Positions 642 to 63,828 of a stretch of 64,000 bases of DNA are shown here, piece after piece. This stretch comes from a virus (taxonomy: Duplodnaviria; Caudoviricetes): positions 1 to 64,000 of the IMG/VR virus record IMGVR_UViG_3300029705_000100; one strand, written 5' to 3'. Below the pieces are notes generated by a model. That model saw nothing but the letters and a program-made list of their open reading frames with translations, did not search any database and was not told the DNA's origin. The position numbers and the translations under genes are program-made. Numbering within the stretch: position 1 is the stretch's first letter; every line of letters begins with the position of its first letter.

Positions 642-1919
642 TTATGCGTTCGCCGATGCAAAATCCGATAGAATGGCTTCGGCGCGATCAGTCATTGTCT
701 GCGTGTTTTTTATGTAAATATTTGCAGTCGTTGCCTGATTGGCATGGCCTTCCCAATGCTGAATTGTCTTGTCGTCTACGCCCAGTTCATGGAGAACTGT
801 GGCGTGGCTGTACCGAAACATATGCGGATGGAGATCATCGATTTCAAGAACCTTCTTGATTCTATCCATTGCCTTGCGAAGCATTGACTTCGTGTAGGGA
901 GTGTTGCTGTTGCCGACAATGTAATCTCCACAGACAGGAATGTTTTCCAGAATGATCTTCAATGGTTTGACCAGTGGAATTGTTCGGATGCTCTTCTTTG
1001 TCTTAGGGAGCTGAATGGTGGCGGTGTTGCTTCCGTTGTTGAAGGCAGCTTGCTTGGTGATGTGGATGCAGTTTTCGGCAAAGTCCACATTATCCCATGT
1101 GAGACCAAGCGCTTCGCCACGCCTCAGTCCTTCGTACATCATCAGTGCAACCAGAACTCTATCGGAAATGCCAAGATCGGGGAGGAGACTCTGAACTCGC
1201 AGCCATTCATCCTGACTCAAGGCGCGGCCTTCCTTTTTATCGGCGCCGGTCTTGGTTAGCTTACCCTTCGCGGGATTGATCACGATCAGCGATTCCTGAA
1301 TTGCCATATTGAAGATCTGTCGAAGTGTAATCAGCAGCTTATTCTGTGTGGATGCAGCGATCCTTCTGCTGTCGTTTAGCAGTTCCTGAATATTGGTGGT
1401 TGTGATTTCGTTGATCGGTTTGTCGCCAAAGACAGGATAAATGACGCGGTCCAACATTCTGCGGTAATCGTCAATGGTGGCGGGCTTCAGCTTGTTGTTA
1501 TCCTGCTTATAGACCCTGAACCACCATTCAGCCATATCTTTGAATGTGATCGTCTTTTCATGTTTGACTTCCGCGGAGTCGCTGCGAAGAACATAATCTC
1601 CCAACAGACCAGAATCAAGCACCATTTTTGCTGCTTTGAGCATAAACTCGTACTCGGTCTTGGCCTGTACATGCTTCATAATGGGAACATTGAATTCATT
1701 GATACCAATAGGTACTCGTCCACGTACCATAAAATCCTCTCCTTCTTGAGAGGGTTGTGTACCAACTGTGCTGTTATCAAGGTTCGTATCAAGAAGGACA
1801 CAGCGGATGTAATGGGCCAATTTCCGCTCATCCACGGTCACAGTGGCCTTCTTGCCATCTATGATATCCACTTTCAAACTGTCTGTCAACAGTTTTTCTC
1901 GCTCCTAACTGGTATCCAT
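642..1919 (-). CDS. int: Tyrosine integrase (in-frame TAG at codon 5)
   Basis: GLRRGE, LPKT, HMFRYSHA and TIQHWEGH catalytic motifs; ATG at 1919 with GGAGGTG RBS, reading MDTS*EREKLLTDSL with TAG at 1905-1907. Confidence 0.9.
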
Positions 1920-1920
1920 T

Positions 1921-2442
1921 TTACACCTCCACGGCTGTAGGTTTCTCTAACTTTTCAAGGAACCGATTCTGAATCAACCAAGTGATCCCGACGGCCACTG
2001 CATCGCTTTCATCATCCGTTCTATATTGCACCTTCCCTACATATTGTTCCAGAATCTTGGCTACTTCCTGCTTACTGGCTTTTCCTGAGCCGGTAAGCGC
2101 TTTTTTTATTGTGGTCGGAGCAATTTCAAGATAGACCGCCTGACGTTTCTGCCAGGCGGTCTAATCTGCAATGCCTACGACCTTTGAGATAGCTTGCGTT
2201 TCTTTTGGAAATCTTGAAAATGCTTTTTCTCTGACGAAAACGTCTACACCATCAGAAATAGAGCACAGGAGGTCGTAGATGCCACATAGAAGCTTTCCAT
2301 GGGGCGAGGAGGGGGATCGATCCTCCAAATGCCATAAAGCCTCTACATGGGCTCTGGGAGCCTCATACCGGATTATCGCAAATCCCGGACATCTCAGCGA
2401 CAGATCGGCACACAGCTATCGCAGAGGCTTAGGCGAATCCAT
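1921..2442 (-). CDS. RuvC-like Holliday junction resolvase (2 in-frame TAG); absent from ORF track
   Basis: LR*LCADLSL...VREKAF...VVGIAD*TAW...EIAPTTIKKALTGSGKASK...DDESDAVAV; TAG at 2416-2418 and 2161-2163. Confidence 0.85.
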
Positions 2443-2770
2443 CGGACCTGTCTCTATCATGATCGACCTCATAGGCAAACATCGCTCTCAGAATTGCATG
2501 GCTCAGATGGTCGTCGCTTTCGTCGCTGGCGATATATGCGAACAGATGCTGAATGGCGTGATTTACATGCTCCTCGGCGGAGATTTTCTTGTAATTGCGC
2601 TCAAGAAGAGTCTCGCCGTACTTTTCAGCGCCATACTTGGCTACTTCTGCGGCAGCGAACACTGCATGGGGCGGAAGAAAATGAAACGCATAGGGGGTCG
2701 CAGACTGCCTTCCGCCCTGATCATTGGTTACGGTTGGTACATCAGGCTGTACGCCGGTGATTATCGCCAT
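2429..2770 (-). CDS. dATP/dGTP diphosphohydrolase-domain protein (DUF5664-like)
   Basis: KYGAEKYG...NYKKI...HVNHAIQHL pattern. Confidence 0.6.
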   Translation of the reverse strand: MAIITGVQPDVPTVTNDQGGRQSATPYAFHFLPPHAVFAAAEVAKYGAEKYGETLLERNYKKISAEEHVNHAIQHLFAYIASDESDDHLSHAILRAMFAYEVDHDRDRSDGFA

Positions 2771-3414
2771 TACTCTTCCTCCTTTGCCAGCAGTTTGTCA
2801 AAACAGAGTGCGCTCCAGGATTCCATGTAGCCGTTACTGCGCGCTTCGGCCATCTGCTTCACCGTGAACCAGTCGCCAGTGAGTTTGTCAGCTTCCAGAC
2901 AGGAGATGTCTTCACGCTCAGTGTAAGCGTAGTAGACCATGCCGAGATGGACGCTGTCCACCTCGTTATCTTCGCGGGAAATAAAGCCGCAGAAGGTGAT
3001 GTCTGCAATATCTGCTTTGAAAAGACCGACTTCTTCTTCCAGCTCGCGGTACAGGCAGTCCATGATGCGTTCGCCTTCGTCCATGTGACCGCCAAGGCCG
3101 ATACTGTGCTGACCGATGAGGCGTTCGTCGCCGCCGATGCGGGTAGTCATGAAAACTCTGCCGGTGGGCTTATGTTCAATCAGCACATACGGAATCATCT
3201 GCTTGAATGTAGGATTGCATTCAGCTTCACAGCGGAGCATGGACTTCATATGCTGCTGCACCCAGTCCCTAAGGGTTATCACGTCGCCGTTATAAAGTAG
3301 GACAGCGTCTCTGCGGCACGTGAAATCGCCTTTCTAAAAATCTGCGACAACCGATCGGTCAACGCCCATGACTTTGGTGTCGCCATACTTTTCACGATAT
3401 TGTTCACTCGTCAT
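2770..3414 (-). CDS. NUDIX hydrolase (1 in-frame TAG)
   Basis: KQMIPY, GLGGH and RELEEEVG Nudix box; extended to ATG 3414 (AGAAGG RBS) through TAG at 3334-3336 (ADF*KGD). Confidence 0.8.
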
Positions 3415-3901
3415 ATTGTTCCTTCTTTCTACGAAACATCCATGTTTCGTCAATCAATTCGTCAGTTGATATCCGATAGAAGCGCTGGTTTGTTTTGGGA
3501 TTATCCAGCCCACCGAGGTCGTCAACATAGGGTCCCAGTTTGATGTAGTCCAGTAGCGGAAGCTACCGTTCAAAAGGCCTGATGCTGTCGCATCCGCTGT
3601 ATAGGCATGTTTTCAAGCCACGGGCGCGAATCATCAGAAGCGCATATTCCAGTTGCTCCATGTTGCACCCCTCTCCCATGAGGCATACACAGGTAATCAA
3701 GCCGCTATAGCGTCGGATCAGCGCATCTAGGTCACGCTACAGCGGTTGCCCGATATCCTGCTGCAGATATGGAGAGTGGCAGTTGTGACAGCGATAGTCG
3801 CAATTGGAGATGGTCAGCGTCAGGCTGATTTCCTTCGGGACTTCTTCCATCGTTATTGCGCACTCTACATACCGAAGCGGTGAATCAATTGTCCTCTACA
3901 T
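3404..3901 (-). CDS. nrdG: Anaerobic RNR activating radical-SAM enzyme (2-3 in-frame TAG); absent from ORF track
   Basis: EVPKEISLTLTISNCDYRCHNCHSPYL, TCVCLMG, LDYIKLGPY...GGLDNPKTNQRFY; TAG at 3737-3739 and 3563-3565, possibly 3896-3898; start uncertain. Confidence 0.85.
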
Positions 3902-4130
3902 CATACTTGGTATAGCATTCATCGCAGATGCGATTACCATCGACAGTTTCCACATAACCGCGTGTGATCCACTCACCACAGGCGTCGCAGCGGTGAGACT
4001 GGTGAATGTCAGTGCTTTCGCAGCGGGGACAGACACAGAGCTCCTCGTAGGGAGGAGTGTCCAGTCCATGCCGTTCAAAGACAACCTTTGCCTGTTCAAA
4101 CAATGCGCCGCATTCTACGCAGATCAGCAT
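3885..4130 (-). CDS. Small Cys-rich zinc-binding hypothetical protein
   Basis: Four CxxC pairs in 81 aa, operonic position. Confidence 0.65.
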   Translation of the reverse strand: MLICVECGALFEQAKVVFERHGLDTPPYEELCVCPRCESTDIHQSHRCDACGEWITRGYVETVDGNRICDECYTKYDVEDN

Positions 4131-4318
4131 GCATCATCGCCGTCCTTGACATTGATGTACAGGCCGCAATGACAGTCCTGTTTCTCTCGAAAATCCTTAC
4201 AGGGGCACTTGTTTTCAGGCTTCTTTTCCTACTTACAGGGGCAATGGCCATTGTTGGCTTTGATGCGCTTTTTGAGGCTCTTGACGAACACTTCGTCGGG
4301 GTTTAGCATAACACCCAT
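4124..4318 (-). CDS. Ferredoxin:thioredoxin reductase catalytic-subunit-like protein (1 in-frame TAG)
   Basis: NGHCPCK*EKKPENKCPCKDF...CHCGLY with the CPC/CPC/CHC signature; TAG at 4229-4231. Confidence 0.8.
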
Positions 4319-7221
4319 CAGAATCCCTCCAATCCGTCGTTGTAGTAGCGACGTTCTTCTTCCTCCTGTCGCTCCTTGGAGAAACTGGAAACCAATTTTA
4401 GATAGCCGATGACGCGGGTAGCGTAATCAAGATCCTTGCTATCGCAAATCGGGCATTCAGCAAGGCGGTGTTTGCTGATATATCCACAAGTTTTGCACAA
4501 GGTGTTGTGGATATTGAAGGTAAAATAGCTGCATCCGGTCCTAATCGCTGCTTCCAGAAGCAGAAGATACTGTTCCTTCGTCAGATGGTCATCCAGATTG
4601 ATGTGACAGGCGCTGCCGCCATCAAGATACTTGGTAAAAGCCTTGCCGTGAAGCATCAGCTTGTCCAGTACATTGACTTTCGGATCTTCAACCCGGAAAA
4701 AGTAGGAATTGTAGCAGTCGCGAGGGACAAACAGTTTTGCTGCCTTATCCCATGCGGCATTCTTCACGCCCAAGCCTTCTGCGGGCACCATTTCTGTGTT
4801 CCAGAGGATACCATTGCCTCGGGCTGCTCTGTTGGCCTCATATATAGGCTGGAGAACTGCTTCCGTATAGGCAATGTAGTCAGCATTTGTGGGATCAATT
4901 TCAATTCCCAGCGATTCCGCGCCCTCAATGAAGCCATTGATGCCAACCGTGAGATACTGCTTTTCCAGATTGACGAACCCAGCATCATATACAGGCAGAA
5001 GGCCTGCTTTTTGGCGTTCATGAAGGATTTCATTGAACACCAGCAGGTATCTGTGGACCTTTTCAACCTGAATCTTCATTGCCTCTCGCACATCATCCAG
5101 CCCGCGATCCCAGATGGCATTCTGAACAAGCCGATTGACATTGATGGTTATGACGCACTTGCTGCCAGTAGATACACCGCCTGCGCCAAGCGTGTAGGAG
5201 AAGGTGTTGTCCTGCAATTCATTGCGAAGGCGACAGTTATGAGTGATCATGCCGCTGGGGAGTGTGAAGTACGGTTCATTTTGGTTTGCAATCTCAAAGC
5301 AGTAAACAGATTCGCCATCGCGATCGGTGCATCTGCTAACTTCAGCAACGCGGAAATACATGCCGTTGTTGACGATACGGAAGACATTACCCATGCTACG
5401 TTTGTTTCTTGGTTCATACCAACGAATGCAGTACAGCGGGTAATTGCGGTTCCATATTTCACCGCGTATAACGACAGGTTCATCAGTGCGGTCACTGATA
5501 TTGATGCTGGTGTTCAAGCCCAATGAGGAGCACAGTGCTTCAATATCGTCAATCAGACCAGTAGATGTGCTGTAGATGCGATTGTTGTTACCGCCATCTG
5601 TCGCGTACAGTCCATCCAGAATACCTCGCCTGAAGTCAACGGACTGGATCAGCACCTCTGCGTTCAGTCTCTTAGTATTACTGTTCCTGCCGTCAACATA
5701 TCGGAAAATGAACGACGAAAGCTCATCGCTGTATAGGCTTACTGGATACATGCTATGGAGTGGCTTGTACAGCGTGAAATCACTGTCGATACCGATATCT
5801 CGCAGAGCAGCATTCATTCTTTCGATACAGTCGCCATACTTACTCTCGTTGAGAGAGAAATGGACTGTTTTTTGACATGGACCGTGCGAATCAACGCTAC
5901 CATCGCCAAGATACATGCCGATGAGGAAACCTTGGTTGTAGGACAGTCCAATATCCTTTTCAGGAACGGGATCAAGTTGCAGTGTATTGAAGAGAATGTA
6001 ATCGTCAGTATTCAGTTGATCTGCGCGGACATCGCCTCTGAGCGTCGGAAACAGATGATTATCCGTTACCACTACAGATTTGTTGTTGGAGGTGCACACC
6101 GAGTACATCGGACGACCGTGAAGCTTAATGGTTTTGGCGTGAACCCAGCTCCCATTGTGATATACACACATGTTGGCCTTGTTTCCGCTGTATTTCATGT
6201 CGTGGAGTTCCTTGATAGGCATCAGGAATACGCCGGTACTGCTCTTGGCCAGAACCTTTGTATCTCCGGCAAAACAACAGCTTGAAAGACTGTCTACACT
6301 GTCCGATCTGTACACAAAGAAACTGTGTCCTTCAGCCCACATCTCTGCAACAAAGTCCTTCCACTCCTGATCGACATAGTCGTTGCCATCGTCCAGCAGA
6401 TTTACTGTTTCTACCGGGAATGTGAGCATCTTGCGCAGGCGTTCCTTGTTGAACCACTTCATAAAACGCTTCTGCAGCCAGTTGACGGATTCCCATCGCA
6501 TAGGCGTCCCATCCGGAAAGACGAAGTTTTCGAACATGCCATGAAAGTAAGGCTTGTCGAAGTACGCGATATTAAAGAAGACCGATTGATTGCCCCTGGC
6601 CGCTGCTGGCTGATTTAAGCTGTACACTACCTGTTCAAAGTTGTCTGTGATCACCTTGTCAATGGTACGCTTGCGGCTGGACGATTCAACACATTCATTC
6701 ACATGAAGATAGTAGTCGTCGCCGTATTCCTTGCGAATGAAATAGTCCATATAGGCGATCCATTCGGGGGTGCTGATGGCACCACAGAACTGAGAAGCGA
6801 GTGCAAACACCAGATTGATGAAAGAGCCGGTGAATGCAGCAAGATTCTTCGGAGCTTCGCTTGTACCGCCGATCGTGGTGTTTCCGTGAAACAGGAACGG
6901 ATAGAGCGTTACACTTGCACAGTAGGGTTTACCGATAACGCCCGTTTCATCATGCCGGTAGATCTCATGCTCCTCCAGCTGGCGAAGGTATTCCTCGGCG
7001 GTATCAACGCCATACATCTGACTGAGCTTCTGGTACATCGCCAATCGATTGATGGCAATGGCATCACGCTTAAACAGCTCCGTTTCGAGCGTTGCAATGC
7101 TCTTTCGCTCGACATTTGCGTTCGGGTCAACTTCGCTGCCGGTAGCGGCATTGATGGCTTTGCCATATCGAGAGATAAAATCCTAATGGGATGCGTGATC
7201 CCGGTATTTGTCAATTCGCAT
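4318..7221 (-). CDS. nrdD: Anaerobic ribonucleoside-triphosphate reductase with intein (TAG at codon 13)
   Basis: LTFPV, SSC|CRL, EMVPAEGLG, C-terminal zinc ribbon and TRVIGYL; ATG at 7221 (AAAGGA RBS), TAG at 7183-7185 (SH*DFISRY). Confidence 0.93.
5236..6276 (-). mobile_element. Intein with LAGLIDADG homing endonuclease in NrdD (347 aa)
   Basis: Begins CFAGDT, ends ITHN followed by Cys; LIGMYLGDGS and GILDGLYATDGG motifs. Confidence 0.92.
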
Positions 7222-7426
7222 GGGAGTTCGTCCTTTCATTGAGCCACGCAAGCGCAGCCGGATAGTCCATCATCTTGCCGTCTACAGACAGCATCGGCAG
7301 ATGTGTAATTCCCTGGGCAAGCATTTCATCGGTATTGCTGTTGATCGAGTAATCAATACCGGATTCATCCAGGCGAGCCTTCAGAACTTCGCAGCAGGGG
7401 CAGTGATTGCTGTAGAGTACAATCAT
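7211..7426 (-). CDS. Glutaredoxin/NrdH-like redoxin
   Basis: YSNHCPCC and LPML motifs, 71 aa. Confidence 0.8.
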   Translation of the reverse strand: MIVLYSNHCPCCEVLKARLDESGIDYSINSNTDEMLAQGITHLPMLSVDGKMMDYPAALAWLNERTNSHAN

Positions 7427-8037
7427 TCCGACACCTCCATGTCATCGAAGACGACTGGGATGGCAGCTTTGGCCTGCATAAACTACTCGCGCATAAGAAA
7501 ACGCATTTCCGGATAGGCTGCCTTGCTCATGCGCAGACCGAATATGTGTCGCCATTCACGCAGATTTGCTTTCATAATAATCTTGGTTGCCGTAGAGTTA
7601 GGAAGCACCTTTCTTGCGTCTTCCGGTTTACATCCAGCGTTCAAAAGAGCATGATAGGCGCGTTCGTCAGCTTCCATGCAGCGCTGCCAAAATTCGGAAT
7701 CGGTATCACCAGGACTGTAGAACAGTGGCTGAATGAAGGCGATCTGACCGCTCATACAGACATAGCGCTGGCTTTCGATGGCAAAGCTTGCAAGGCGATG
7801 ACGCGTGATTTCCGCCATGACGTCGCGGGAAGTGATCTACTCAACTGTCATGTCAGCAAATTCAAGAGGGGAGAGGTGACCGCGTCGGATCAACGAGCGC
7901 ACAAATCGAGGAGCGCTGTCCTCGGTAATTTTTACTTCGGAGCGGTAGCAGTTGCGACCGGCTACCTCAATATCGCGAAGAGCCTACATTCCATCAGTCG
8001 GTCTCAGAATCTTCGCACTCTGGTTCAGTATCTTCAT
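7423..8037 (-). CDS. thyX: Flavin-dependent thymidylate synthase (3 in-frame TAG)
   Basis: GRNCYRS, RGHLSPLE, EITRHRLASFAIESQRY, ARKVLPN, NLREWRH; TAG at 7984-7986, 7837-7839, 7483-7485. Confidence 0.92.
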
Positions 8038-8308
8038 CTTCAGATTCTCCTTCAATGATTGTGTTGTGGATGCGTTGAGCGATGGTGCGCGGCGTCAGAG
8101 CACATCCGTATACCTTGCCGTCATCCATAAGGATCAACGCTTTGGTCATGCGTCCCGCTGTCAGGTCATGAAATACTTTCTCGTCTTTGGCGGCCTTGCA
8201 GAGCCGTCTTGCATTGGCGGACAGCGGCATGAGGATGGCTTCAATGCGATTGGCGCAAAGGACATTGCCAAAGCCAACATGCACAAATCGCTAAGGGGTA
8301 AATGCCAT
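7994..8308 (-). CDS. RemA/DUF370-like regulatory protein (TAG at codon 6)
   Basis: MAFTP*RFVHVGFGNV...DLTAGRMTKALILMDDG; GGAAGGAG RBS; TAG at 8291-8293. Confidence 0.7.
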
Positions 8309-8356: not shown

Positions 8357-8443
8357 TGGTAGGAGCAGCGGGGATCGAACCCGCACGCCGTTTCCGGCAG
8401 CGGTTTTAGAGACCGCCGCGTATGCCAGTTCCGCCATGCTCCC
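8357..8443 (-). tRNA. Amber-decoding tRNA (anticodon CUA) with tRNA-Leu body
   Basis: 87-nt class II cloverleaf; anticodon arm GCGGT-CTCTAAA-ACCGC (anticodon at 8407-8409); D arm GCGGAACTGGCATACGC; variable arm GCCG-GAAA-CGGC; A73; encoded CCA. Confidence 0.95.
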
Positions 8444-8556: not shown

Positions 8557-8588
8557 AAAAGAAAACAGTCACGAATACTCGTGACTGT
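8557..8588 (-). terminator. Intrinsic terminator upstream of the suppressor tRNA
   Basis: CAGTCACGA/TCGTGACTG stem followed by TTTTCTTTT on the minus strand. Confidence 0.75.
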
Positions 8589-8599
8589 AGTAGAACGTA

Positions 8600-9388
8600 T
8601 TATTTGAGTGCCTTCATACTCAGAAAGTTACTTTTAGCTTCGTTGTAATCAGATAGTTTTCTATCCCATTCAGTACGGTTTTTGGCATTACGCAATACTT
8701 CGTGCAAGGACACATCGTCGAAAAATCTGGTGTCTTCATCACAGTAGCATTTTTTAGCATATTGCTTGAGGAAAAGTAGTACCGCTTCGCTACAACGCTC
8801 TTCTTCATACTCTGGGGGATAATTGTGGATGCATTTCGCCATATCGTCAACGAAGTACAGCATGTCGGGTGGAGGATCAAAATCCACAATTTCACCGTCA
8901 ATTTCAACAGGAACGGGTTTGGTATCGATACCATTTTTCTTTAGCTTATAATCGAAATATGAGCGTAGACTCTCCGCACATACCATTTCATAGTCATACC
9001 TGCAAATATCCTTGTATTGTGATAGTAATCTGTCAATGGTGGTTCGTTCACTTTTCCACAAATACCTTGCATTATGGTCTTTCAAAAGTGAAGTGAGTTC
9101 CTTGTATCTTTGCCAAGTTGGTTCATCACTCAAAACCGTCCGCATCGGGTACAAAACCGACGATTTCAGATTGTTTCTATTACCGAACCTGAAGTATATC
9201 GCAGATATTATCCATGAAACAACACCGGATAAGACGACGGATATCAAAGTGAAGATGTTAACGCGGATATTCTCCGGAGCAAAAATCCATTTCAGATAGG
9301 ATATAACATACGCAATAATCTCTTTCATGTGACACCGTCCAATCAAAGAATGTGCCTTTATAATACAGCAAATGGAGGTATTTTTCAA
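8600..9388 (-). CDS. AT-rich cargo hypothetical protein with N-terminal TM segment
   Basis: 262-aa ORF with hydrophobic N-terminus; start may be at MKEII. Confidence 0.7.
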   Translation of the reverse strand: MKNTSICCIIKAHSLIGRCHMKEIIAYVISYLKWIFAPENIRVNIFTLISVVLSGVVSWIISAIYFRFGNRNNLKSSVLYPMRTVLSDEPTWQRYKELTSLLKDHNARYLWKSERTTIDRLLSQYKDICRYDYEMVCAESLRSYFDYKLKKNGIDTKPVPVEIDGEIVDFDPPPDMLYFVDDMAKCIHNYPPEYEEERCSEAVLLFLKQYAKKCYCDEDTRFFDDVSLHEVLRNAKNRTEWDRKLSDYNEAKSNFLSMKALK

Positions 9389-9561
9389 TACTGCTGCAGA
9401 GAATTCAGATAATTGAGGCCCAAGCTATGCTTACATAGAATTATGAAAAAAGTTCACAACGATAGTGGAAACACAGCTTGAATAGAGGTATATTCATATG
9501 AGGTTAGATGCTGAAACATAATATATGATAACTACCGAGGTGTACAAGCTGAAATATCCTA

Positions 9562-10344
9562 TTGATTAACTCGCAGAGCCGCGTTATACTATATTCGAAG
9601 GGAATACAACCGATGATGATTGAGAGGACGAGATATATGAACGGTACTATCTATGCAATACGTACGGAAACTTTTCCTAAAAGAAGATTGATCAATAATG
9701 ACCTATACAGATTGTTTGAACTCGTAGCAAAAAAGTATCAAGTGATACATGGTAAGCGTGGAAAGGTTATCTATTTATACGACGATGTCTTCGAAGATGT
9801 CTACCTTTCAAACACTGTACGGTTTGTGGCTAAATACGCAACAAAGTTCATTAGAAAAGTACCACTTCAAGACAATCCTATACATTGTGCAGGAAGGTAT
9901 GCATCGAAGAATCAAATAATGCTTTTGCTGAATGAAAATAGCCGGTTTACAAGCGTAAATACTATTTTTATTCTTGTCGTGTTGTTGAAGTTACTCTTAC
10001 TCGATGAACGCAGTAAAGAATTTAGAAGTCTATCATGTCGGAAAAAGTCTATCATGCCAGTAACAGAAAAGAACATTATTCCTAACGATATAGAAGATGA
10101 TATAGCTGTTTCATTTTTGAAACAGCATATAGAAAACTTGCTCAATGACCCATATTATCGACATTATGTTCCTTCACGACATTTTATATGTGAATATATT
10201 ATAGATTGTTACGATGAACTGATTGAGCTCGTAGGCAACAATGCTATTGACGCATTGCGCAAGGCAAAGAATAAAGCGGAAGGTAATATGGGGATACTTG
10301 CTGTACAGCCACTCCAAATGCCGCGTTATCCAGCAACCATGTAA
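9562..10344 (+). CDS. AT-rich cargo hypothetical protein
   Basis: 260-aa ORF; start uncertain. Confidence 0.65.
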   Translation: MINSQSRVILYSKGIQPMMIERTRYMNGTIYAIRTETFPKRRLINNDLYRLFELVAKKYQVIHGKRGKVIYLYDDVFEDVYLSNTVRFVAKYATKFIRKVPLQDNPIHCAGRYASKNQIMLLLNENSRFTSVNTIFILVVLLKLLLLDERSKEFRSLSCRKKSIMPVTEKNIIPNDIEDDIAVSFLKQHIENLLNDPYYRHYVPSRHFICEYIIDCYDELIELVGNNAIDALRKAKNKAEGNMGILAVQPLQMPRYPATM

Positions 10345-10349
10345 ATGCA

Positions 10350-11021
10350 ATGAGGAGGAGGAGCATGAATAAAAGCCCGTTTGTACCCGAATACCTAAGG
10401 AATATGCGTATAAATACATCAGAAAAATGGATGTTTTTTGCGTCGGGCATCAGTTCATATATTGCGTCCCTTTTTGCAGAAGGATTCGTTGATGAAGGAC
10501 GACCCTTGTTAGTAAGTTTTATCTTTGGCTGCGGTGTTTTTTTAGTGCTATTCATATTATCCGTTTGTATTGTTTATTTGAAAAACAATTCATTCTTTTA
10601 CCGTTATCCAAAATTGAGTGAATATGAGATATGCAGTTTCATTAACGAGAAGTTACCGGATGAATTGATGAGAATAAATAACAATATGGCAAACGCTACT
10701 GACGATATAAATAAACAGGTTTTATGCCAACACATCTTGTATCAACTTGATGTAATTATTGAATTCATTGATACACATGTTAGAGAAAGCTTGATTAGGG
10801 GGAAGAATAACAATGGCCATATGACCGGTCGTGCCTATAATCGCATAACCCCTGATCATTTAGAGGCCGTACTGTGTTGTATATACAGAATACTTGTACA
10901 AGTGATTCCTGAAATACCTGACAATACGTATGCAGAGGCACTGAAAAGACAAGTAAATTGCCTGGCATGTAAACATCTGAAATGTGATTCAATAGAAAAA
11001 AGCAAATACATGCCTTTATGA
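10350..11021 (+). CDS. AT-rich cargo membrane protein (2 TM)
   Basis: 223-aa ORF with two hydrophobic segments; AGGAGG RBS before MNKS. Confidence 0.65.
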   Translation: MRRRSMNKSPFVPEYLRNMRINTSEKWMFFASGISSYIASLFAEGFVDEGRPLLVSFIFGCGVFLVLFILSVCIVYLKNNSFFYRYPKLSEYEICSFINEKLPDELMRINNNMANATDDINKQVLCQHILYQLDVIIEFIDTHVRESLIRGKNNNGHMTGRAYNRITPDHLEAVLCCIYRILVQVIPEIPDNTYAEALKRQVNCLACKHLKCDSIEKSKYMPL

Positions 11022-11250
11022 ACAAGAAATGAATTTGATATTTGAGTGTTAGCTTCTTTACTGTATGATGTCGTTTCTTCAAGCAAGCGCTGTTGTAACT
11101 AGCAAGTTGGCAATCCAATCTATCTTCACAAGTGAATAGCAGTGGAGTAAGCCAAAATAATAATATTACCTCAGCCAATCGTAATATAACTTATGATTTG
11201 CTGAGGTATATTGTTCTGGTTTTGAACTCGTGTTGAGATTCACACAAATA

Positions 11251-54070: not shown

Positions 54071-54349
54071 TGCGGAGTCTGTTTGTTTCGGCATCTGAAA
54101 TATATTCCATAGCCAGAAAATTCTCTGGATTATGTAAAAAATGCTTCGAAATGTCCCTCTTAGATAGTGAGGGGTCGATGGAGAAGATAAGTCCCGAGAT
54201 GAGATGAATGTGTTTTGAATCCTGATGCGTGTCGGAGAAGAGAGTCTCCGGAAGCAAATAGTAGTCTTATAATACTATATAATACAACATACACTCTCCG
54301 GGGACACCCTCTCGTAGTTATGATAAACCCCTTGGCGAGGAGGAACAGC

Positions 54350-56122
54350 GTGGTGAATAAAACAATCGATGAACGGGTATTGGAGAAAATGATCGAGCTG
54401 TATGTGTCCTATCGAGGGCGATACATACTCTGTCTGCCAACCGGAAACATCATCACACCCAAGAGAAAAGACGGTAAGTACAGCTGGCTGTCGAATGCTG
54501 TTTTGAGAAATCACCTTGAACAACAATACGCGGTGGGTGTTTTTGCAGATAATTACGGCAGCAGATTTATATGCTTTGATGTGGATAACGGGAATGCGGA
54601 TACAGTTCATGCAATTATTGATGAACTCGCGGCACTTGGGTTTTCAAGAAGCGACATCCATGTGTCCTTCAGCGGTGGCAAGGGCTATCACGTTGAAGTT
54701 TTCTTTGATGAGTGCATCATTACATACCGTCTGCAGGCACTGTACAGCCATGTAATCACTGCACGAGGCCTTGACCCGCAAAAGGTGGAATTTCGCCCCA
54801 TGAATACAGCGTCTATCAAACTGCCTTTATCAAGACATGCAAAGACCGGCAAAATTTGCTGGTTTGTTGATAGAGACACCCTCGTGCCCATCATGAGACA
54901 GGATTATGTTTTGAGCATTCATCAAATCAGAGCTGCCGAAGTAAAAGCGCTGATCCCCGAATGCCCTGTTATCACACCAAGAAGCCAGGAGACGAAGATC
55001 CATTCAGAAAAAGGCTGTTCATCTCCGGAAACCAGAGACCTTGGCACAACGCTTGAACAGGTGGGTACGCGGCACAACATGATGCGCAACATTGCGGTAT
55101 TCAAGCGGACGCATGGGGCAAGCCGGGAGGAATGTGAAACTGCATTGCATGAATGGATTGAAGCACAGGATTCCCAGTATTACAAGTCGTCACAACGGGA
55201 TATCCGCCGAGACATCGATGAGCTGATCGCCTGGGTATACTCAGAGCGTTTTGTGCTCCAGAAAGCAGCAAGCGTTGATTCGACAGTTTTGCGTACCTCC
55301 ATGTTAGAAGGCTTGCTTGCGCAGAATACCCGTACTGCCAGAAGACTGTACTTTTTGTTTCTGGTCCGCTGTCGGATGCAGCAGCCCAGAATGTCGCTGA
55401 AGGATGCCGGCAAAGCTATTGGCGCCAGCGTTCCAACCGTTGTCAAGGGCATTCGTGCTCTGACGGAAGGCCAGCATATTGAGGTTGTTGAAGGTAAGAG
55501 ATTAAGTCTGGGCAACGGAGTATTTACCGCCGAGTGCCGTAGCTACGTTGTTCCTCATTCTGGCGGAAACCGTGATGAGCTGTGCATAACCATTACCATG
55601 CGTGAACTCATTTTTGACTTCAATGCCTGTTATCATAAGGTTTTGCATGCATAGATCGCCCAGAATGTGCTCAAAGAAAGCCTGACTCGCTCTGAGTGGG
55701 AAGAATATCTGGAGTATCTGAGCTATGTAAATGGCGAAGTGACAGATATGGAGACCAGCAGACGGATCGACCTGATTGCCACAAAGCAGACACTGAGTCA
55801 TAAGGCCTTCGGGAAAATTGATGTATTTGACCTGGGCGACAGATTGCTGTATCCGGCTTATGACGTTGGCTGCAAACTGCATCTGGCACATCCCAGCGCA
55901 TTGGGCAGTGAATGCACGGACAAGGAATCATGGTGGATTCGTGTGAAGCGGTGTGTGCTGAAAAACGGCGTAACGTCCTATCAGGTGCTGCGTAAGAACT
56001 TCATACCGGCAGAGGACGTCAGGAGGCTGGCGCGATCGTCAAACGATCCGCAGGCGATGGACATTTGTGACTGGATACTGTCACTCGAATCCATACAGGA
56101 GGACGATGAAAATGAGAAATGA
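54350..56122 (+). CDS. Archaeo-eukaryotic primase-like replication protein (PriCT-like region), read through TAG into a Bro-N-like domain
   Basis: FICFDVD, SFSGGKGYHV, KLPL, RHNMM; GAGGAGG RBS; TAG at 55652-4 in frame with ORF 55667-56122. Confidence 0.7.
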
Positions 56123-56513
56123 GTCAGAGTGGGCATACCTGCCCCTGAGTGAAGAGCGCGTTGTGGCGCAGTAGCTGAAGAACCGGTGTAAACTGGATGC
56201 AGCGTATGATGCCCGACAGCAAAGTGGGACGTCTCTGGATTCACAGGGAGGATATGGATAGGCTGAGGCTGTGTAGTGTACCTACATGGATCTGGATCGC
56301 CTGATTGCCGCATGCGATATTCCTGATGACATGATGAGTACGCTGACGTTGGTGATGGACGGCTATTCGCTTCGTGATATTGCAGAGCTGCATGAACGGG
56401 AAGTGAAAGCAGTGGAACGGGAATTCAGAAACGCTGTGTCCCTGATTGTACGCAATAACAATCAGGCATGGGTGAATACGTACACGCGAAAAAGAGCTCC
56501 AGATCAGAAGTAA
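56112..56513 (+). CDS. Sigma-region-4-like HTH regulator (3 in-frame TAG)
   Basis: MRNESEW...VVAQ*LKNR...G*AEAV*CTYMDLDRLI...GYSLRDIAE; TAG at 56172, 56259, 56274. Confidence 0.7.
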
Positions 56514-56663: not shown

Positions 56664-56675
56664 AGGAGGATGAAC

Positions 56676-57404
56676 GTGGCAACACGTTATGGAATCACAT
56701 AGCCCAATGGCGTTAGATTTACGCTTTTGTATAACGAGGATCAGAGCAAGATCGAGCTTATAGAGGAGCTGATCCTGAAATACTGGTCAAACTACTGTCT
56801 TAGGAATTGGCTCAGTGATAACCATGAGCAGCCATACTCACCGGAAATAAAGGTGAAGAGGCTGCTGGATCGCTGCGGTACACTTCTCCTGCGCGATGTG
56901 CCTCCGGACGAGAGAGACACCTTGACGAGCTACAAGGAAATGGTTGTGGGTAGCAGAGAAATCAATGTTTCAGACTGCCCGGAGGCTATTGCGGAAATGC
57001 TGGAAAGCGGCTGCGTTCAGTTGAACAGGCTGACGCCCGACGACCGGCTGAGATATGAGCTTCTGACAGATAAGCTTGATGAACGCATCGGCGCACAGAA
57101 AAAGAAAGTTGCTCGCGCGAGACCGTCAACGCGGTTCGAGCGCTTGGAAGCAATCCGGAACGCTTTTCAAGGCTGCACGATTCATGGCTGCAGGGTGGAT
57201 ACGGATGGATGCTTCGAACATAATGGCGCTGTTTATCAGGTGGACAGTACGGAAGGAAAATACGCCCCGCATAAAACGCGGTATGGCGATCAGTATGACA
57301 TGGACAGGATCATCGTAATCGAAGTTCCGGACGGTGGCGTACACTTTGCTGATCAGGACGGATATCTGATGGACGATGCGATGATCGCTGTGCTAACGAG
57401 GTGA
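56676..57404 (+). CDS. Hypothetical protein (TAG at codon 9)
   Basis: GGAGGAGG RBS, MATRYGIT*PNG; TAG at 56700-2. Confidence 0.75.
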
Positions 57405-57408
57405 GAGA

Positions 57409-58560
57409 ATGAATGATAAGCGCGATCTGATTCGCGAAATGTACAGCAAGGCGATCGGCGCATCTGATCTCGATTGGTCGGAGATTGCCGAGCAGTCCGG
57501 ATGCGGATAGCACCCGGATCAGCTCCGCAAGATGGGCGCGGGCATTAAGCTGGCCGCAGATAATGGAATGCTTGCTTAGTATCCGGAGGAAGAAAACAAG
57601 CTGGACAATGTACAACAGCTTCGTGATCTTCGTAATGAGATCAACGAGACCTATAGAGCAAAATCCCGCAGCGAGGCGCTGCGGGATGCTGTTGTTCATG
57701 CGGTGAAGACCATGCCGCCCATGACTGTGCTGCCTGCGGATGAGAAGTATTCCATCGGCAAGCGTACGCTGGTACTCTGCATTGCAGACTGCCACTTTGG
57801 TGCAGAGTGGACGGTGCGCGGCCTTCGCGGCGAGGTACTGAACAGCTATACGCCCGAGGTGTTCTTTGAGCGCATGTCCATGCTACTGTTCCAGACCAGA
57901 CTGATTCTGGAGAAGGAGCAGATTGGCGACGTTCAGCTCCTGATCTGCGGCGACAGTCTGGACGGCATGCTGAGAGCCAGCCAGCTCATGAAGCTGCGCT
58001 GGGGCGTAGTTGAAAGCTGCATGCGCTTTTCGGAATATATGGCGCAGTGGATCAACGAACTGTCCAGATATGCTACTGTATCTGTCTGCGGCGTTGACGG
58101 CAATCACACCGAGACCCGCAGTCTGAACAGTAAACGCGGTGATTTTCCCGGCGAGAATCTGGAGAAAGTAATCTTCTGGTTCCTGAATGAACGTTTGAAG
58201 GATAATGCCAATGTAATCGTCGATGGTGTGACCGAACAGCAGAAGCACTTGAGCGTTCAGGGCTGCAGCATCCTGCTGACGCACGGAACTGATGTCCGGA
58301 TGATGGAAAAAGCGGCAAGACAGTCGATGCTTCTCTACAACGAGGGTATCGACTTCTTTATCTGCGGACATAAGCACCGCGAGCAGGAATGTGTTTCCGG
58401 CTATACGGATCAGGGCAACTCGGTAATCGTTCGTGTTCCCAGTATTTGTGGTATGGATGAATACGCACAACAGCTTGGATACGGCGGTCGCCCGGGGGCT
58501 ATGGCGATGGTTCTGGAAGCCGGCTATGGCAGGCGTTGCGTCTATCCCATCAACTTGTAA
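57409..58560 (+). CDS. Calcineurin-like metallophosphoesterase (2 in-frame TAG)
   Basis: IADCHFG, CGDSLDG, DGNH, THG, CGHKH; TAG at 57508 and 57577. Confidence 0.85.
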
Positions 58561-58572
58561 CGGAGGGATAAG

Positions 58573-59493
58573 ATGGCAACTGGAACGAAGCTGAAGGGGC
58601 GAAAGATCACTTCCAAGATGTGCGTCAAGTGCGGAAAGGTGCTGCCTCTTGACAAGTTCTATGCGAACAAGGACTGGGCGGCACAGTCCTATCATGACGC
58701 ATGGTGCAAGGATTGTGCATCGAAGTGCAGCATCAGCAAAGAAGGCGCACGCGAGTTCTGCTGGTACAATAATCGCCGGTGGTCTGATGCATACTGGGAC
58801 ATGGCCGTAAAGAAATCGGCCTACGCGCTGGCCAATGATCCTGATTATCTTGCAGCACGGGACGATGCAAAGCGCGAAGATCTGGAGAACCGTACTGCAG
58901 GCAAATACTTTTTCAGCATCATGAACCTTGGCAACGTATATCAATACTCTGCAAACATCGACACCGATGGCGCATACCGCGAATTCAATCCGGATTCAAC
59001 GGCTGGCACGGTTACGCGAGACGATTCAGGGGCTTTCCTTGATGACGGCGAGCTGATCTACAGCCGCGAATGGAACGGCATGTATACCCAGCGTGAGATT
59101 GACTATCTGGATGATTACTATGCCCGGTAGGAAGAAGGATTCGTGTTGGACAATCAGAATATCCAGGACTACGCCAGGAAATCTGCAAAGGCGTCGCTGG
59201 ACGCAGATATCAAATACAGCAAGATGCGCCACGGTCAAGCATCTGTCAACGAATGGAAAGAGGCACAGGCGATCTTCGATAACCTCTCGAAATCGGCGAA
59301 CTTCGCAGCCTGTAAGCGCAAGCCCGGCGATATGGCTGGCCTTGGTTCGTTGGGCGCAATCGTTGCCAAGATCGAGATGAGCGGTGAACTGGACACGCCC
59401 ATGGTGGAATTTCCTCCTGACGACATCGATAGGATCATCGCGGACTTCCGGCATACAGTCGCTGCTGTCGGACTTGAGCAGGTGGTTGTATGA
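58573..59493 (+). CDS. Zinc-ribbon protein preceding terminase, possible small terminase (1 in-frame TAG)
   Basis: CVKCGK..CKDC; YYAR*EEGFVLDNQ with TAG at 59128-30. Confidence 0.65.
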
Positions 59494-61142
59494 TATAGAC
59501 GCAAATCAGAGACATTCGGGATGTGAAGTTGTGGGCAATGCAGATTCACTTCTGGAGGACACATCTGGATGTGTTCATTGAGGAATACTTCCATATCAAG
59601 CTCAAGGATACGCAGCGCGTGGTTGCCCGGCAGTTTGGCAATGCGGATACCCTCATGGTGGTCAAGAGCCGCGGCTATGGCAAGACATGGCTGACAGCAT
59701 AGTGCTGTATTGCGGTTGGAGTGCTGTATCCCGGCAGTCTAATTGCTGTTGTCTCGGGCACCGCTGAACAGGCAACCCTGATCGTTAAGAAGATTCAGGA
59801 TTACTTTGTTCGGAATCCCGAGATCATGCGTGAGATTCAGACGGACAGTCATCGTCCTGTGCAGCTGTCCCGAAACAAGGGTATCTGTACTCTGAAGAAC
59901 GGTTCGAAGATCGAGAGCTTTTCGGTCGGCACCATGCGAGGCAATCGTGCCAAAATCGTGGTGATCGACGAATCGCCTGAGGTCAAGGCAGACGACCTGG
60001 ATGCGGTCATCGGTCCTGTCCGCAACACCAAGCGCGATATCTGTCATCAACGCGGGATTAAGGACTATACCAGTAAGACTATTTCGATCACGTCCGCCTG
60101 CCTGAAGAGCAACTATTTCTACGCCATGTTCATGGCAGCTTTGAAGGAGTTTTCCAAGGGCAGCACATCCAACTTCGCGTGCGCACTGGATTATCAGAGT
60201 GCGGCGCGTGTCGGAATTACAGATTTAGACTTCTTCCTGAAGGAACAGAAAAAGATGCCCGAAGCAAAGTTTGCTATGGAATATGGCAGCTGCTTCGTGG
60301 GCGCGGAATCTGGCTCTATGTTCCCATATGATCTGACGGAGAACTGCAGAACGCTCAGACAGGTCGAGGTAGTGCAGCCGACCAGTTGCACCTCAGATTA
60401 CGTCATGGGCGTTGACCTTGCAACCTCCAGCAAAAGACTGGCGGATAATGCCGTGATCACGGTCGTCAAGCTGGTCGAGATGGAAAACGGAAACTACCTC
60501 AAGAGAGTGGTCTACATGCGGTCCTATCACGGTAAACGCTTGGATGCACTGGCTGAAGAGGTGCGTCGAACCTATGCGAAGTTTCCGAGGATCATCAAGA
60601 TTGTATTCGACCATCGCGGTTTGGGTGATGCGCTGCCCGAATTCCTTTCGCAGCCATGGACAGATGACAACGGTAAGGAATATCCCCCGTGGACGCTGGA
60701 CGACAGTAAGTCGTTCATACATAATGCGGTGCCGATCCTTCGCAGCGTCAAGGCCAATCCACAGATCAATCAGCAGCTTGTTTCGTGCCTACGTGTGGCA
60801 TAGGAACAAGGTTCGATTGAACTGCCCGTGAATTCCAGGTATGCGGAAACACCGCCTGATGAAGACGGTGAAGAAGAATCGGTAAAACAGAAAAAACTGA
60901 CGCTGCAGGAAAAAGCGATCTTTCTGGAGGGAGATGCACTGCAGATTGAGATGGGCAATATCATCATGAAGACCGGCACAGGCGGAACGATTCTGTATGA
61001 TGTGGCTCGTGCCAACCAGCACAAGGACAGATACTCAGCGCTTTCAATGGCAGTGCGCTTCATCGCTGAATTGGAAGATGAGCGAAAACGCAAAATGCTC
61101 AGGCCGAAGAATAACTTTATCGGTGTCGTGAGCAGAATCTGA
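59490..61142 (+). CDS. terL: Terminase large subunit (3 in-frame TAG)
   Basis: SRGYGKT Walker A, VVIDES Walker B, GVDLA, HKDRYSAL; TAG at 59496, 59700, 60801. Confidence 0.92.
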
Positions 61143-61155
61143 TGGGAGGAATACA

Positions 61156-62700
61156 ATGGGATGGTTTGATAGATAGAGAAAGACCCCTCAGCCGCGGGAC
61201 GAGCCCAGACAGGCGAAGAGCGTAGATATCGCTGTGGGTGCAAAGGATGACGGCAATGGTACGATGACTTATAATGATAAGTCCATTACCTACACCGGCG
61301 ACCTTGCGAGCTATGACTATGACAGCATCCTTCGGGATAAACAGCGCAATATCAACAGCCTGTTTGAACTGAGCGACTACTATGTAGACGCCGATCCAAT
61401 CTACCGTGGTATCATCAGGGGGGTGTATGTACCCTTCAGCGTTGCGGATGACTGGAGGCTGATCGGCGCAAACGAGCAGACCAAGGAAAAATACGAAGAG
61501 TACTATGAACGTATCGGCCTTGCGGATCGCGCCAGAAGCATCTATTACCAGTATTACAAATACGGCAATGTGTATGTTTACCTGCTGGAGGATGGCAGGA
61601 TGATTACGCTTCCGGTGCATCTGATCCGCATTGCGAACGTCATGATCGGTAACGAGCCGGTACTGGAGTTCAACTGCAAATCCGTCCGCGACGATATGCG
61701 GCAGCAGGGCGTCAAGGCGCAGAAGGATTTTCTGGAGGATGAGGATCTGGAAGTTCGACTGGAAGGTTTTCCACCCGAGGTTGCGGAGGCAATCAAGAAG
61801 GGCTCCGACTGGGTGCAGCTGAATCCGGAGAATACGTTCTGCATGCAGGACTTCAAGGAGGACTGGACGCGGTACGCTATTCCCATGGTCGCCACCTGCC
61901 TGGGTGCATTTCGCAGGAAGGCACTGATCGCACAGTATGAATCGGCGTAGCTGAATCTGGGCGCGCACAGCTTTGTTCATGTGACCTATGGTGACAGTAA
62001 ATCGGACATTATGCCAGATATCACTGCACTCAATGCAGTCAACGCACTGTTCCGCAGGGCGATGACCGGTTCTGCGCTGGCGACGACCAACCATCTGTGT
62101 AAGGCGGAGGTCATTCAGCCGAACCTGAACGAGATGTTCTCGGATGACAAGTACCGGGATGTCAATGCAGAAATCTTGTCCGCAGGCGGCATCTCTGGTA
62201 TTATTGTCTCCGGCCGCGCTGAGGACGGCAGCAATTTTGCTTCAGCTCAAGTCTCCATGCAGACTGCTGCGATCCGCATCAAGCAGGCGCGGGATAATTT
62301 CTGCGAGCTCATGGATAAGATCAACCTGCGGCTCAACGGCAGAGGACGTGGCGGCGTAACGCACAGCCGCCCGGAAAATGTGCCGCGCTTTACCTATCCG
62401 CCTGTGGATCTGGCTAACAGTCATAAGTTTCAGGAAGTATGTCTGAAGCTGTGGGAAGCCGGCGTTGTTTCTACCAAGACCATGCTGCAGACTCACGGAT
62501 ATGATATGGATCAGGAAGTGGAGCGTATGAAGCATGAGCCTGCCAGAGATAAGGATGGCAAAGAGAATCATGATTCTTCCGCGTCCGGAGGCGGCAAGGT
62601 TGGCCGCCCGGAGATGGATGACACTGAGCGCAGCTCTGACCCGTTGAAATCGCAGACAGGTGCGCAGCCGAAGCCCTCAAACCCCGAAGGAAGTTAGTAA
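61156..62700 (+). CDS. Portal protein (2 in-frame TAG; ends TAG-TAA)
   Basis: MGWFDR*R start with GGGAGGA RBS; follows terminase; TAG at 61174 and 61948. Confidence 0.8.
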
Positions 62701-62712
62701 GAGGAGGATACA

Positions 62713-63828
62713 ATGAATAAGGTATCTTTTATGGCACCGCGGGTGATGATGGCGGCAACTGAGCAGAACGATATTTACATGACTGTCGTGATGCGCATGT
62801 TCTCCACGGCGCCCAACAGAAACGGCTTTGCTGTGAGCGAAGCATTTATCGACAATATCGTTGCCAATGCGGCGAAGTACACCTGTCTTCCGTAGTGCGC
62901 GGACGCTGGTCGCCTGAGAAACGGCGGCATGGACGGCTTGACACACCGATTGAACAAGACCTCCGGCATCTTTGAGAGCGAGCAGATCGGCTCGTTCTTT
63001 TCTTTTGCCAAGGAGATTGACAACGGCGTGATCAGCCTACTTGGCGAAGCGAGAATTCCCAAGAGAAATCCGATGCTTTGTGAAACGCTCATGCGGCTGT
63101 ATGAGGCTGGCGCACTGAATTTCTCGTTTGAGATACTGGTAGGCAATGCCACCCAGATGGATGGCGTCACGCTGATCGACGCTGTAGAAGGCAACGAACT
63201 GATTGGCATGGCGGTGGTTACGACTCCCGCTTGCCCCGAGGCGACAGCGATCAAGCTGATCGCCGAAGATGAAAACGATAACGATGATGACAGAGAGGAT
63301 GAAGAGGAAATGGACGAGAAGGATAAGAAGATCGCCGAACTGGAAGGCAAGCTTCAGTAGGCTGAGCAGAAGGCGACCAATGATGAAGAGCTCCGTAAGA
63401 AGGACGAGGAGCTTACCAAAGAAAAGGAGCAGCGCGAAAGGGCTGAGGCTGAGCTGACCGAGGCAACCGGCAAGCTGACCGAAGCGGAAACCCAGCTGGC
63501 AGAAAAGGATACCCGCATTGCTGAACTGGAGGCGCAGGTATCCGAGCTCGACCCCATCAAGGCTGAGGTCGAGCAGCTGCGTGCTGACAAGGCTGCCGCT
63601 GAACTGGCTGCCAAGCAGCAAGAACTGACCCGATTTGCGGAAGCTCAGGGTCTGGACGCCAAGGAAGCGGCTATCGCCGAAGCGATCCAGAAGGCAGACT
63701 ATGCTGCTCTGGTTGCTGAATCCATGAAGAAGGAAAAGACCGAGACCAAGCCTGTCGTCGCATCCTACGCCATGGGCGGCGGCATTACTGCCAAGGGCGA
63801 ATACGATGACCTGCTGGGCAAGGCCTGA
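62713..63828 (+). CDS. Prohead protease with C-terminal coiled-coil scaffold (2 in-frame TAG)
   Basis: NRNG...LP*CAD...FSFEI...GMAVVTTPA then acidic coiled coil; TAG at 62893 and 63358. Confidence 0.78.

Follow-up and report, generated by a model that had tools for sequence, protein, structure and literature searches.

Codons that would stop translation in the standard code interrupt many of the conserved genes of the virus record IMGVR_UViG_3300029705_000100 from IMG/VR. We analyzed the first 64 kb of this 72-kb record, which we call here the window (64,000 nucleotides), and asked what the interrupting codon, TAG, stands for and how it is read. An earlier note, made from the sequence alone, had proposed that TAG means Leu in these genes, and not Gln as usual in recoded phages. 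Our analysis suggests that TAG is very probably decoded as Leu, by means of a tRNA encoded by the phage. We present the genome and its relatives, then the TAG codons, the residues with which they align, and the phage tRNA, before weighing the alternatives.

The phage, its host, and its relatives

The window starts with around 640 bp of bacterial DNA, with a gene fragment and a tRNA-Lys gene (coordinates of all features in Table 1). This stretch is 78% identical to a separate contig of a metagenome-assembled genome (MAG) of a related Clostridia from goat colon. Since the bacterial DNA and its tRNA-Lys are followed by a tyrosine integrase, this part of the window is a prophage end at a tRNA-Lys attachment site. 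The element is an SPbeta-like temperate phage of uncultured Clostridia, integrated at the host tRNA-Lys, and the whole record was estimated by CheckV to be around 37% complete. Its terminase large subunit (TerL) shares 26-30% identity with YonF of SPbeta and with a protein of Clostridium phage c-st, in alignments that span more than 90% of the length. Phages of the SPbeta and c-st kinds are likewise large and temperate, with a DnaE-type polymerase and a related TerL, but their relationship to the phage of the window is distant only.

The host uses the standard code, as it had seemed in the earlier note. The bacterial gene fragment at the start of the window ends with a TAG stop codon (252-254), and TAG terminates 6 of the 41 long open reading frames (ORFs) in around 75 kb of host MAG DNA. 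The single tRNA(CUA) of one of these MAGs, G006, belongs to its prophage.

We compared the window with 15 relatives, of which 4 are viral contigs and 11 are prophage loci of MAGs from Clostridia. The first comparison genome, G001, is 80 kb long, syntenic with the window, and 55-80% identical at the amino acid level; the three other viral contigs and the MAG loci were added later. The relatives were located with a scan for the tRNA pattern and an alignment-based genome scan, since a scan of viral contigs with the single protein DnaE provided two loci only. The DnaE gene has relatives in MAGs assigned to uncultured Clostridia, whose sources are goat, sheep, cattle rumen, rabbit, chicken, and human gut. 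The DNA of the phage is present in at least eight animal faecal metagenome runs, and among the sequencing runs listed there were no RNA data carrying it.

Conserved genes are interrupted by TAG and by no other stop codon

Reading frames were chosen by their conservation and not by ORF length. For this, stop-to-stop ORFs were translated with TAG as X, those of the contig were searched in the relatives with tblastn, and the top-scoring frame was retained at each place. This resulted in 54 conserved genes on the contig. When TAG is read through, the fragments obtained with translation table 11 merge into full-length genes. We identified 38 in-frame TAG in 18 genes conserved in relatives, from position 1921 to 63828, and 50 TAG over the whole contig. 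Three extra TAG (37199, 40293, and 53617) are doubtful, as they are placed 5' of the conserved part of the gene and probably before the true start. The count of the earlier note, 38 TAG in 21 genes, is thus essentially reproduced.

The tblastn alignments to relatives are continuous across the TAG codons, and there is no in-frame TAA, TGA, or frameshift in the conserved genes that carry them. This matches the claim of the note that TAG accounts for every interruption. The phage stop codons are also those that it had described: among the 54 conserved genes, 38 end in TGA, 15 in TAA, and one runs off the contig end. The portal gene is the only one in which TAG is the last codon, and TAA follows immediately. 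Most of the protein contexts in which the note had placed TAG (here an asterisk) were recovered, namely MS*N (in SSB), P*IITEG (in Toprim), SFSK*, KNDI*, GWFDR*R, LRVA*EQ, MRE*F, AK*KIG, and GFG*V, and one, CPCK*E, was not located. At the TAG sites 22657-22659, 22675-22677, 23338-23340, and 27518-27520, the window is matched exactly by contigs of three further faecal metagenome runs, although one of these runs may be the source sample. The in-frame TAG codons are therefore confirmed as real.

Two other statistics were less informative. The note had put forward coding density as a check, and the crude coverage by ORFs of at least 100 amino acids, chosen greedily, does rise from 0.827 in the standard code to 0.862 when TAG is a sense codon. 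However, it rises more, to 0.909, when TGA is a sense codon, and the statistic is not discriminating. The base 3' of TAG is A in 21 cases, G in 15, T in 9, and C in 8, compared with 58% of purines after Leu codons, which gives no clear context signal.

TAG codons align with leucine

To tally the residues found at TAG positions across the 15 relatives, in both directions, we required identity in at least 5 of the 10 residues flanking a site. The TAG codons of the contig are opposite Leu in 121 of the 150 cases where the relative has another codon than TAG (80.7%). Ordinary Leu codons of the contig, used as a control in the same alignments, align with Leu in 79.4% of the cases. Other residues opposite the contig TAG are much rarer: Ile was found 12 times (8%), Gln and Tyr twice each, and Ser and Trp never. 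The TAG of the contig faces a TAG of a relative in 54 additional cases, in relatives at 55-88% amino acid identity. The reverse tally gives a very similar picture, since the TAG of the relatives fall opposite a Leu of the contig in 120 of 149 cases. When the positions of the contig are sorted by residue, 3.0% of those with Leu are TAG in a relative, for 0.41% of those with Gln, 0.04% of those with Tyr, and none of those with Ser, Trp, or Glu.

We also computed the log-likelihood of the TAG profile with empirical substitution profiles from the same alignments. It is -144 for Leu and -368 for Met, the next best residue. The Leu codons opposite TAG track the Leu codon usage of the phage, with around 50% of CTG and no special preference for TTG. 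Since TAG and Leu codons give alike alignment profiles, TAG acts as one more synonymous Leu codon over this divergence. Sense codons are thus found at many TAG sites in the close relatives, an outcome that the earlier note had tied to assembly error, but they are Leu codons. The relatives, which were assembled independently, also have their own TAG at Leu positions elsewhere, which excludes assembly error.

Database homologues of DnaE and TerL, called under the standard code, provided a more distant test. In DnaE, column 579 is Leu in 120 of 120 sequences, column 1016 has 26 Leu, 24 Val, and 9 Ile, column 1010 has Leu in 26 of 63, and column 789 has 40 Tyr, 36 Leu, and 7 Met. In TerL, there are 83 Leu, 19 Val, and 16 Ile in column 71, and 39 Leu and 4 Phe in column 438. 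No Gln, Ser, or Trp was found in these DnaE and TerL columns. Hence, the homologue residues at TAG columns, whose tally the note had named as a check, are dominated by Leu in the relatives and are Leu or aliphatic in the standard-code DnaE and TerL. In addition, 33 DnaE and 75 TerL proteins of the database end exactly one residue ahead of a TAG site, which indicates that many relatives were truncated by gene calling in the standard code. The comparison of ThyX with solved structures was uninformative, because its TAG columns are in weakly conserved positions (Cys, Ile, Leu).

The TAG load per gene differs widely among relatives. For example, the window has a single TAG in its AEP-primase-like gene, for at least eight in the orthologue of the relative G002 (L016-L019), several of which face a residue other than Leu in the window (Met, Tyr, Ala).

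A phage tRNA with a leucine body and a CUA anticodon

The contig carries a single phage tRNA, whose anticodon is CUA. It belongs to class II, its variable arm being 15 nt long, its D loop 11 nt, its D stem 3 bp, and its anticodon stem 5 bp. A73, A15:U48, and G18G19 at the D-loop position typical of tRNA-Leu are all present. Homologues were found in all 4 viral relatives and in 9 of the 11 MAG loci, almost always immediately downstream of DnaE. Because DnaE and the tRNA of the relatives share a strand, with DnaE first, the replication transcript probably also yields the tRNA. When 11 distinct copies of this suppressor were aligned with three host tRNAs, the cloverleaf was 97% paired and 20 of the 24 pairs showed changes on both sides. 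None of the shuffles and slid registers of the alignment came near the observed covariation.

The host tRNAs give further indications on its origin. In a BLAST search of five host MAGs, the matches other than prophage copies that could be assigned by ARAGORN are all tRNA-Leu. All tRNA-Leu of G006 have A15, U48, A73, and the GAAYYGG register of the D loop in common with the suppressor. The tRNA-Ser of the same MAG all have G73, and the one that was parsed, tRNA-Ser(UGA), has G15/C48. In the tRNA-Tyr of this MAG, A73 is combined with G15/C48 and with GAGTGG in the D loop. The anticodon loops of the suppressor (CTCTAAA) and of the host tRNA-Leu(CAA) (CTCAAAA) are one base apart.

These features provide a mechanism for the decoding of TAG as Leu. 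The phage tRNA would be a tRNA-Leu body in which one base of the anticodon loop was changed (A35 to U), giving CUA. In bacteria, leucyl-tRNA synthetase (LeuRS) recognises A73 and tertiary features of the D loop and not the anticodon, as known from work in E. coli. Since the enzyme is blind to the anticodon, that of the host should charge the phage tRNA with Leu. At UAG, the charged tRNA would then compete with release factor 1 (RF1) and beat it.

The program ARAGORN labels the gene as a tRNA-Pyl, because of the CUA anticodon alone. We rejected this assignment. A tRNA-Pyl has a 3-nt variable loop, a small D loop, and a 6-bp anticodon stem, and is ruled out by the variable arm, D loop, and anticodon stem described above. 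Furthermore, a tRNA-Pyl should lead to Lys-like residues in the TAG columns, but Lys was found only twice opposite the TAG of relatives and never in the tallies opposite those of the contig.

The suppressor differs between close relatives. The tRNA(CUA) of the MAG prophage that is closest by its DnaE (88% identity) has diverged much further and differs in its acceptor stem, and a relative at 65% identity has yet another type (divergent copies at L026:9799-9883 and L032:13185-13270). The suppressor gene seems to evolve, or to be swapped, faster than the adjacent polymerase gene.

Distribution of TAG along the genome

The modules of the phage have very different shares of TAG among their Leu and TAG codons. 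This share is 6.1% in the nucleotide metabolism module (1.9-8.1 kb), 5.0% in the replication module (22.5-30.9 kb), 5.9% in the late region (54.2-72 kb), and 0.8% in the block at 30.9-53.7 kb. At least two of the three TAG in this block, and probably all three, are 5' of the conserved parts of the genes, and we refer to it as TAG-free. It encodes a XerC-like recombinase, GP88, an ArdC-like anti-restriction protein, a reverse transcriptase (RT) with a repeat array, a DUF4942 methyltransferase, and DUF2958. These functions are of the kind needed at once on DNA entry. The relatives have the same partition, with 53, 21, and 8 TAG in the three recoded modules vs one in the early block. The integrase lacks TAG and is hence readable in the host code. 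The late region comprises the genes of the terminase, portal, and virion, and an endolysin-like gene with TAG at codons 7 and 9.

TAG codons are also more frequent near the start of genes. The first 40 codons hold 20 of the 50 TAG, for 8.2 +/- 2.4 expected from the Leu positions of the genes, and include the first TAG of 19 of 32 genes, for 7.3 expected; these counts partly depend on having placed each start at the most upstream codon possible, which may exaggerate the number of early TAG and is a point against the reading given below. Most early TAG are inside regions aligned to relatives, and the bias recurs at the sites that are TAG only in relatives (15 vs 7.1 expected, P ~0.001).

This organization suggests how the two codes may be used in one cell. 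The TAG-free genes (the integrase and the early/anti-defence block) would be translatable in a naive host or in a lysogen that remains unmodified, and the TAG-bearing genes would be locked until the phage tRNA is made. Such a lock might serve as a fail-safe that keeps leaky expression of lytic genes in check in the lysogen, and might set the timing once induction or infection has taken place. From the placement of the codons, a role of this type is plausible, and we lean slightly in its favour. We give about the same modest preference to a broader proposal, in which UAG as Leu would be the working code of a whole lineage of large temperate phages of gut Clostridia, in animals and humans, relying on a single hijacked tRNA-Leu. 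Near-start TAG codons would then act as translational locks, dividing host-readable genes (integrase and early/anti-defence) from those that depend on the tRNA (nucleotide metabolism, replication, late transcription, packaging, virion, and lysis). The split between TAG-free and TAG-bearing modules, together with the 5' TAG, provides a directly testable model of the control of lysogeny and lysis by the genetic code.

Alternative readings of TAG

Some observations count against the decoding of TAG as Leu by the phage tRNA. Around one-fifth of the aligned cases are not Leu, mostly Ile, Val, and Met, and there is one site, column 789 of DnaE, where Tyr slightly exceeds Leu in the distant homologues. 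Over its whole length, the tRNA(CUA) is 69% identical to both the tRNA-Ser(UGA) and the tRNA-Leu(UAA) of the host. This measure does not separate Leu from Ser, and the assignment to Leu is thus based on identity elements and on the D arm. The tRNA of the window has a G1-U72 wobble pair, and no sigma-70-like promoter was found upstream of it. Finally, the five viral records, each of them a fragment, contained no genes for release factors (PF00472) or class I synthetases (PF00133).

The alternative that survives best is that TAG remains mostly a stop. The codons would be programmed attenuators, of which a small fraction is read through as Leu, i.e. leaky suppression without reassignment. The host presumably has RF1, the fragmentary viral records showed no anti-RF1 function, and the clustering near 5' ends places TAG where termination is cheap. 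Yet essential genes with several TAG, such as those of DnaE (five), TerL (three), and the portal (three), would give very little full-length product if each of these codons were read poorly. The 54 conserved genes have also all lost TAG as a stop codon, as efficient readthrough would select, and TAG interchanges freely with Leu codons deep inside genes. We therefore regard attenuation as improbable.

An even smaller probability is given to a suppressor charged with Tyr, Ser, or another residue by an unseen phage synthetase, in which case TAG would mean that residue. Around two-thirds of the phage genome is missing and could hide such an enzyme. The tRNA leaves some room for Tyr, as A73 fits bacterial tRNA-Tyr too and U35 is an element recognised by the tyrosyl-tRNA synthetase, and column 789 of DnaE goes in the same direction (40 Tyr vs 36 Leu). 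Ser has the equal whole-length identity in its favour. The tallies are against both residues, which are found opposite TAG in 2 (Tyr) and 0 (Ser) of 150 cases and whose positions are almost never, or never, TAG in relatives (0.04% and 0%). So is the tRNA, whose A15:U48 and Leu register of the D loop differ from the G15/C48 of the host tRNA-Tyr and tRNA-Ser(UGA), the host tRNA-Ser having all G73.

The ordinary code 15, where TAG is Gln as in the crAss-like, Lak, Garnet, Topaz, and phAss-1 phages, was assumed or reported in every paper on recoded phages that we compared. It is extremely unlikely here: Gln is opposite TAG in 2 of 150 cases, its positions are TAG in relatives far less often than those of Leu (0.41% vs 3.0%), it is absent from every DnaE and TerL TAG column, and the 15-nt variable arm of the class II phage tRNA is found in no tRNA-Gln. 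Nonsense mutations in a decaying prophage, or errors of assembly or sequencing, could explain why the genes look fragmented under table 11, but can practically be dismissed, given that TAA, TGA, and frameshifts do not interrupt the genes, that 54 TAG-TAG alignments are conserved across relatives at 55-88% amino acid identity, each of which has further TAG of its own at Leu positions, that the same sites recur in contigs of other runs, and that a conserved tRNA(CUA) co-occurs in 9 of 11 MAG loci.

Comparison with known recoding systems

Recoded gut phages with their own suppressor tRNA are known to use code 15, with TAG as Gln (crAss-like, Lak, Garnet, Topaz, phAss-1), or code 4, with TGA as Trp (bioRxiv 10.1101/2021.08.26.457843, PMC10607447, PMC9523058). 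The main survey describes only these two changes in phages whose code differs from that of the host, and the glutaminyl- and tryptophanyl-tRNA synthetases (GlnRS and TrpRS) were argued in a published survey to be specially prone to repurposing. The study of phAss-1 and a metaproteomic study likewise report Gln. We found no report of TAG as Leu in a phage in the open-access papers and preprints that were searched, in agreement with the earlier note, whose author was aware of none.

The kind of system described here is thus known, i.e. recoding of a stop codon by a phage with a suppressor tRNA, in a host with the standard code, with prophage integrases free of TAG. It is the meaning of the codon, Leu, that differs. 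As in the other recoded gut phages, there are many in-frame TAG and a phage tRNA(CUA), lytic, late, and lysis genes are recoded, and no phage synthetase was found in the fragmentary records, so that charging of the tRNA is attributed presumptively to an enzyme of the host. In contrast to these phages, the tRNA is a class II derivative of tRNA-Leu, and the route would be a LeuRS that ignores the anticodon instead of a GlnRS or TrpRS that tolerates a changed one. A further difference is that replication and nucleotide metabolism genes are here recoded as heavily as late genes.

The same change of meaning occurs in the NCBI tables 16 and 22, which apply to the mitochondria of chlorophycean algae and of Scenedesmus obliquus, the latter table also having TCA as a stop. 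These are organelles of green algae, without evolutionary link to the present case, which is a prophage (integrase, TerL, portal) and involves two codes in one bacterial cell. The closest parallel for the tRNA is the amber suppressor supP (Su6) of E. coli, a tRNA-Leu with anticodon CUA. There too, the anticodon of a tRNA-Leu was turned to CUA, and charging with Leu is kept as LeuRS does not inspect it. However, supP is an allele of a host gene, mutated in the laboratory, whereas the tRNA described here is encoded by a conserved gene of the phage, and dozens of other phage genes depend on it.

If TAG means Leu in this lineage, table 15 puts a wrong residue at every recoded site of its proteins, and table 11 breaks them into fragments. 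The phage code would be outside any translation table used for phage annotation, and the anticodon-blind LeuRS would be a route to recoding beside GlnRS and TrpRS. The phage tRNA is also predicted to be a natural and compact Leu amber suppressor for Bacillota.

Other features of the window

Table 1. Features of the window, with their positions, strands, and in-frame TAG codons.
Feature	Positions	Strand	In-frame TAG	Remarks
Host tRNA-Lys(UUU)	378..453	+		Likely attachment site; upstream host gene ends in TAG (252-254)
Tyrosine integrase	642..1889	-	0	
Nucleotide metabolism and recombination module	1921..8094	-	11	
RuvC-like	1921-2478	-	2	
MazZ-like	2429-2797	-		N-terminal domain of dATP/dGTP diphosphohydrolase, PF18909
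NUDIX hydrolase	2770-3453	-	1	
Gene of unknown family	3404-4123	-	4	
NrdD	4318-7251	-	1	Anaerobic ribonucleotide reductase, with intein
ThyX	7423-8094	-	3	
Phage tRNA(CUA), putative tRNA-Leu	8357..8443	-		87 nt, CCA encoded; ARAGORN and Rfam
Terminator-like hairpin	8565..8588	-		Between cargo and tRNA, just upstream of the tRNA
Cargo	8600..22414	.	0 supported	14 kb
SEC-C-motif protein (cargo)	11251-11889			
IS66-family transposase (cargo)	14440-16173			577 amino acids, small accessory ORFs adjoining
Group II intron (cargo)	17264-19096			Complete; Rfam domains D1-D4, D5/D6
Intron-encoded RT ORF (cargo)	17437-19062			
407-amino-acid protein (cargo)	21191-22414			Sub-threshold TNT-toxin-like match
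DnaE-like polymerase	22528..25704	-	5	TAG at 25684, 23968, 23338, 22675, 22657
PD-(D/E)XK nuclease	25701..26483	-	1	TAG at codon 15
Toprim primase-DnaB-like helicase fusion	26957..28753	-	2	
SSB	29339..29713	-	1	TAG at codon 3
AAA_24 ATPase	29717..30883	-	2	
Early/anti-defence block	30938..53649	-	TAG-free	Around 19 conserved genes, 4,620 codons
RT of the block	45663-46958	-		71% identical in G001
AEP-primase-like protein	54215..56122	+	1	Ant-like C-terminus; TAG at 55652
Small sigma-factor-like protein	56067..56513	+	3	Weak match
Three late-region genes	56670..59493	+	4	Unknown (56670-57404, 1 TAG), calcineurin-like phosphoesterase (2), HNH/endonuclease VII-like (1)
TerL	59490..61142	+	3	
Portal protein	61156..62700	+	3	
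Conserved head-region gene	62713..63828	+	2	Family unknown

The tRNA and DnaE, adjacent in the relatives, are separated in the window by the inserted cargo, which is not conserved in relatives. Its parts at 8600-13222 and 19263-22414 have low-GC genes (37-41%) without counterparts in relatives, and a small ORF (11889-12203) terminates in TAG. These parts look like a recent acquisition in the standard code, possibly with defence or toxin genes.

In the first module, the intein of NrdD has a LAGLIDADG homing-endonuclease domain, roughly at residues 372-672, and inteins (Pfam PF14890) are likewise found in several database homologues of DnaE in the clade. The MazZ-like gene is near those of NUDIX, ThyX, and NrdD, which hints at editing of the nucleotide pool or modification of DNA bases. 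No PurZ of the adenylosuccinate synthetase type (PF00709) was found in the five fragmentary viral records.

We considered whether 54215-56122 could be two genes, the first ending at the TAG, and rejected this because relatives align across the TAG at 55652, which is Leu in G002. The spacer between the nuclease and the primase-helicase (26484-26979) shows an indel at the strain level, as 494 bp are swapped for 35 other bases in one faecal metagenome run. Directly downstream of the RT of the early block, there are nine copies of a motif of around 27 nt ending in TTTACGATG, between 44305 and 45558, with a spacing of 143-174 bp. A tenth copy is found 1.6 kb further (42691-42717).

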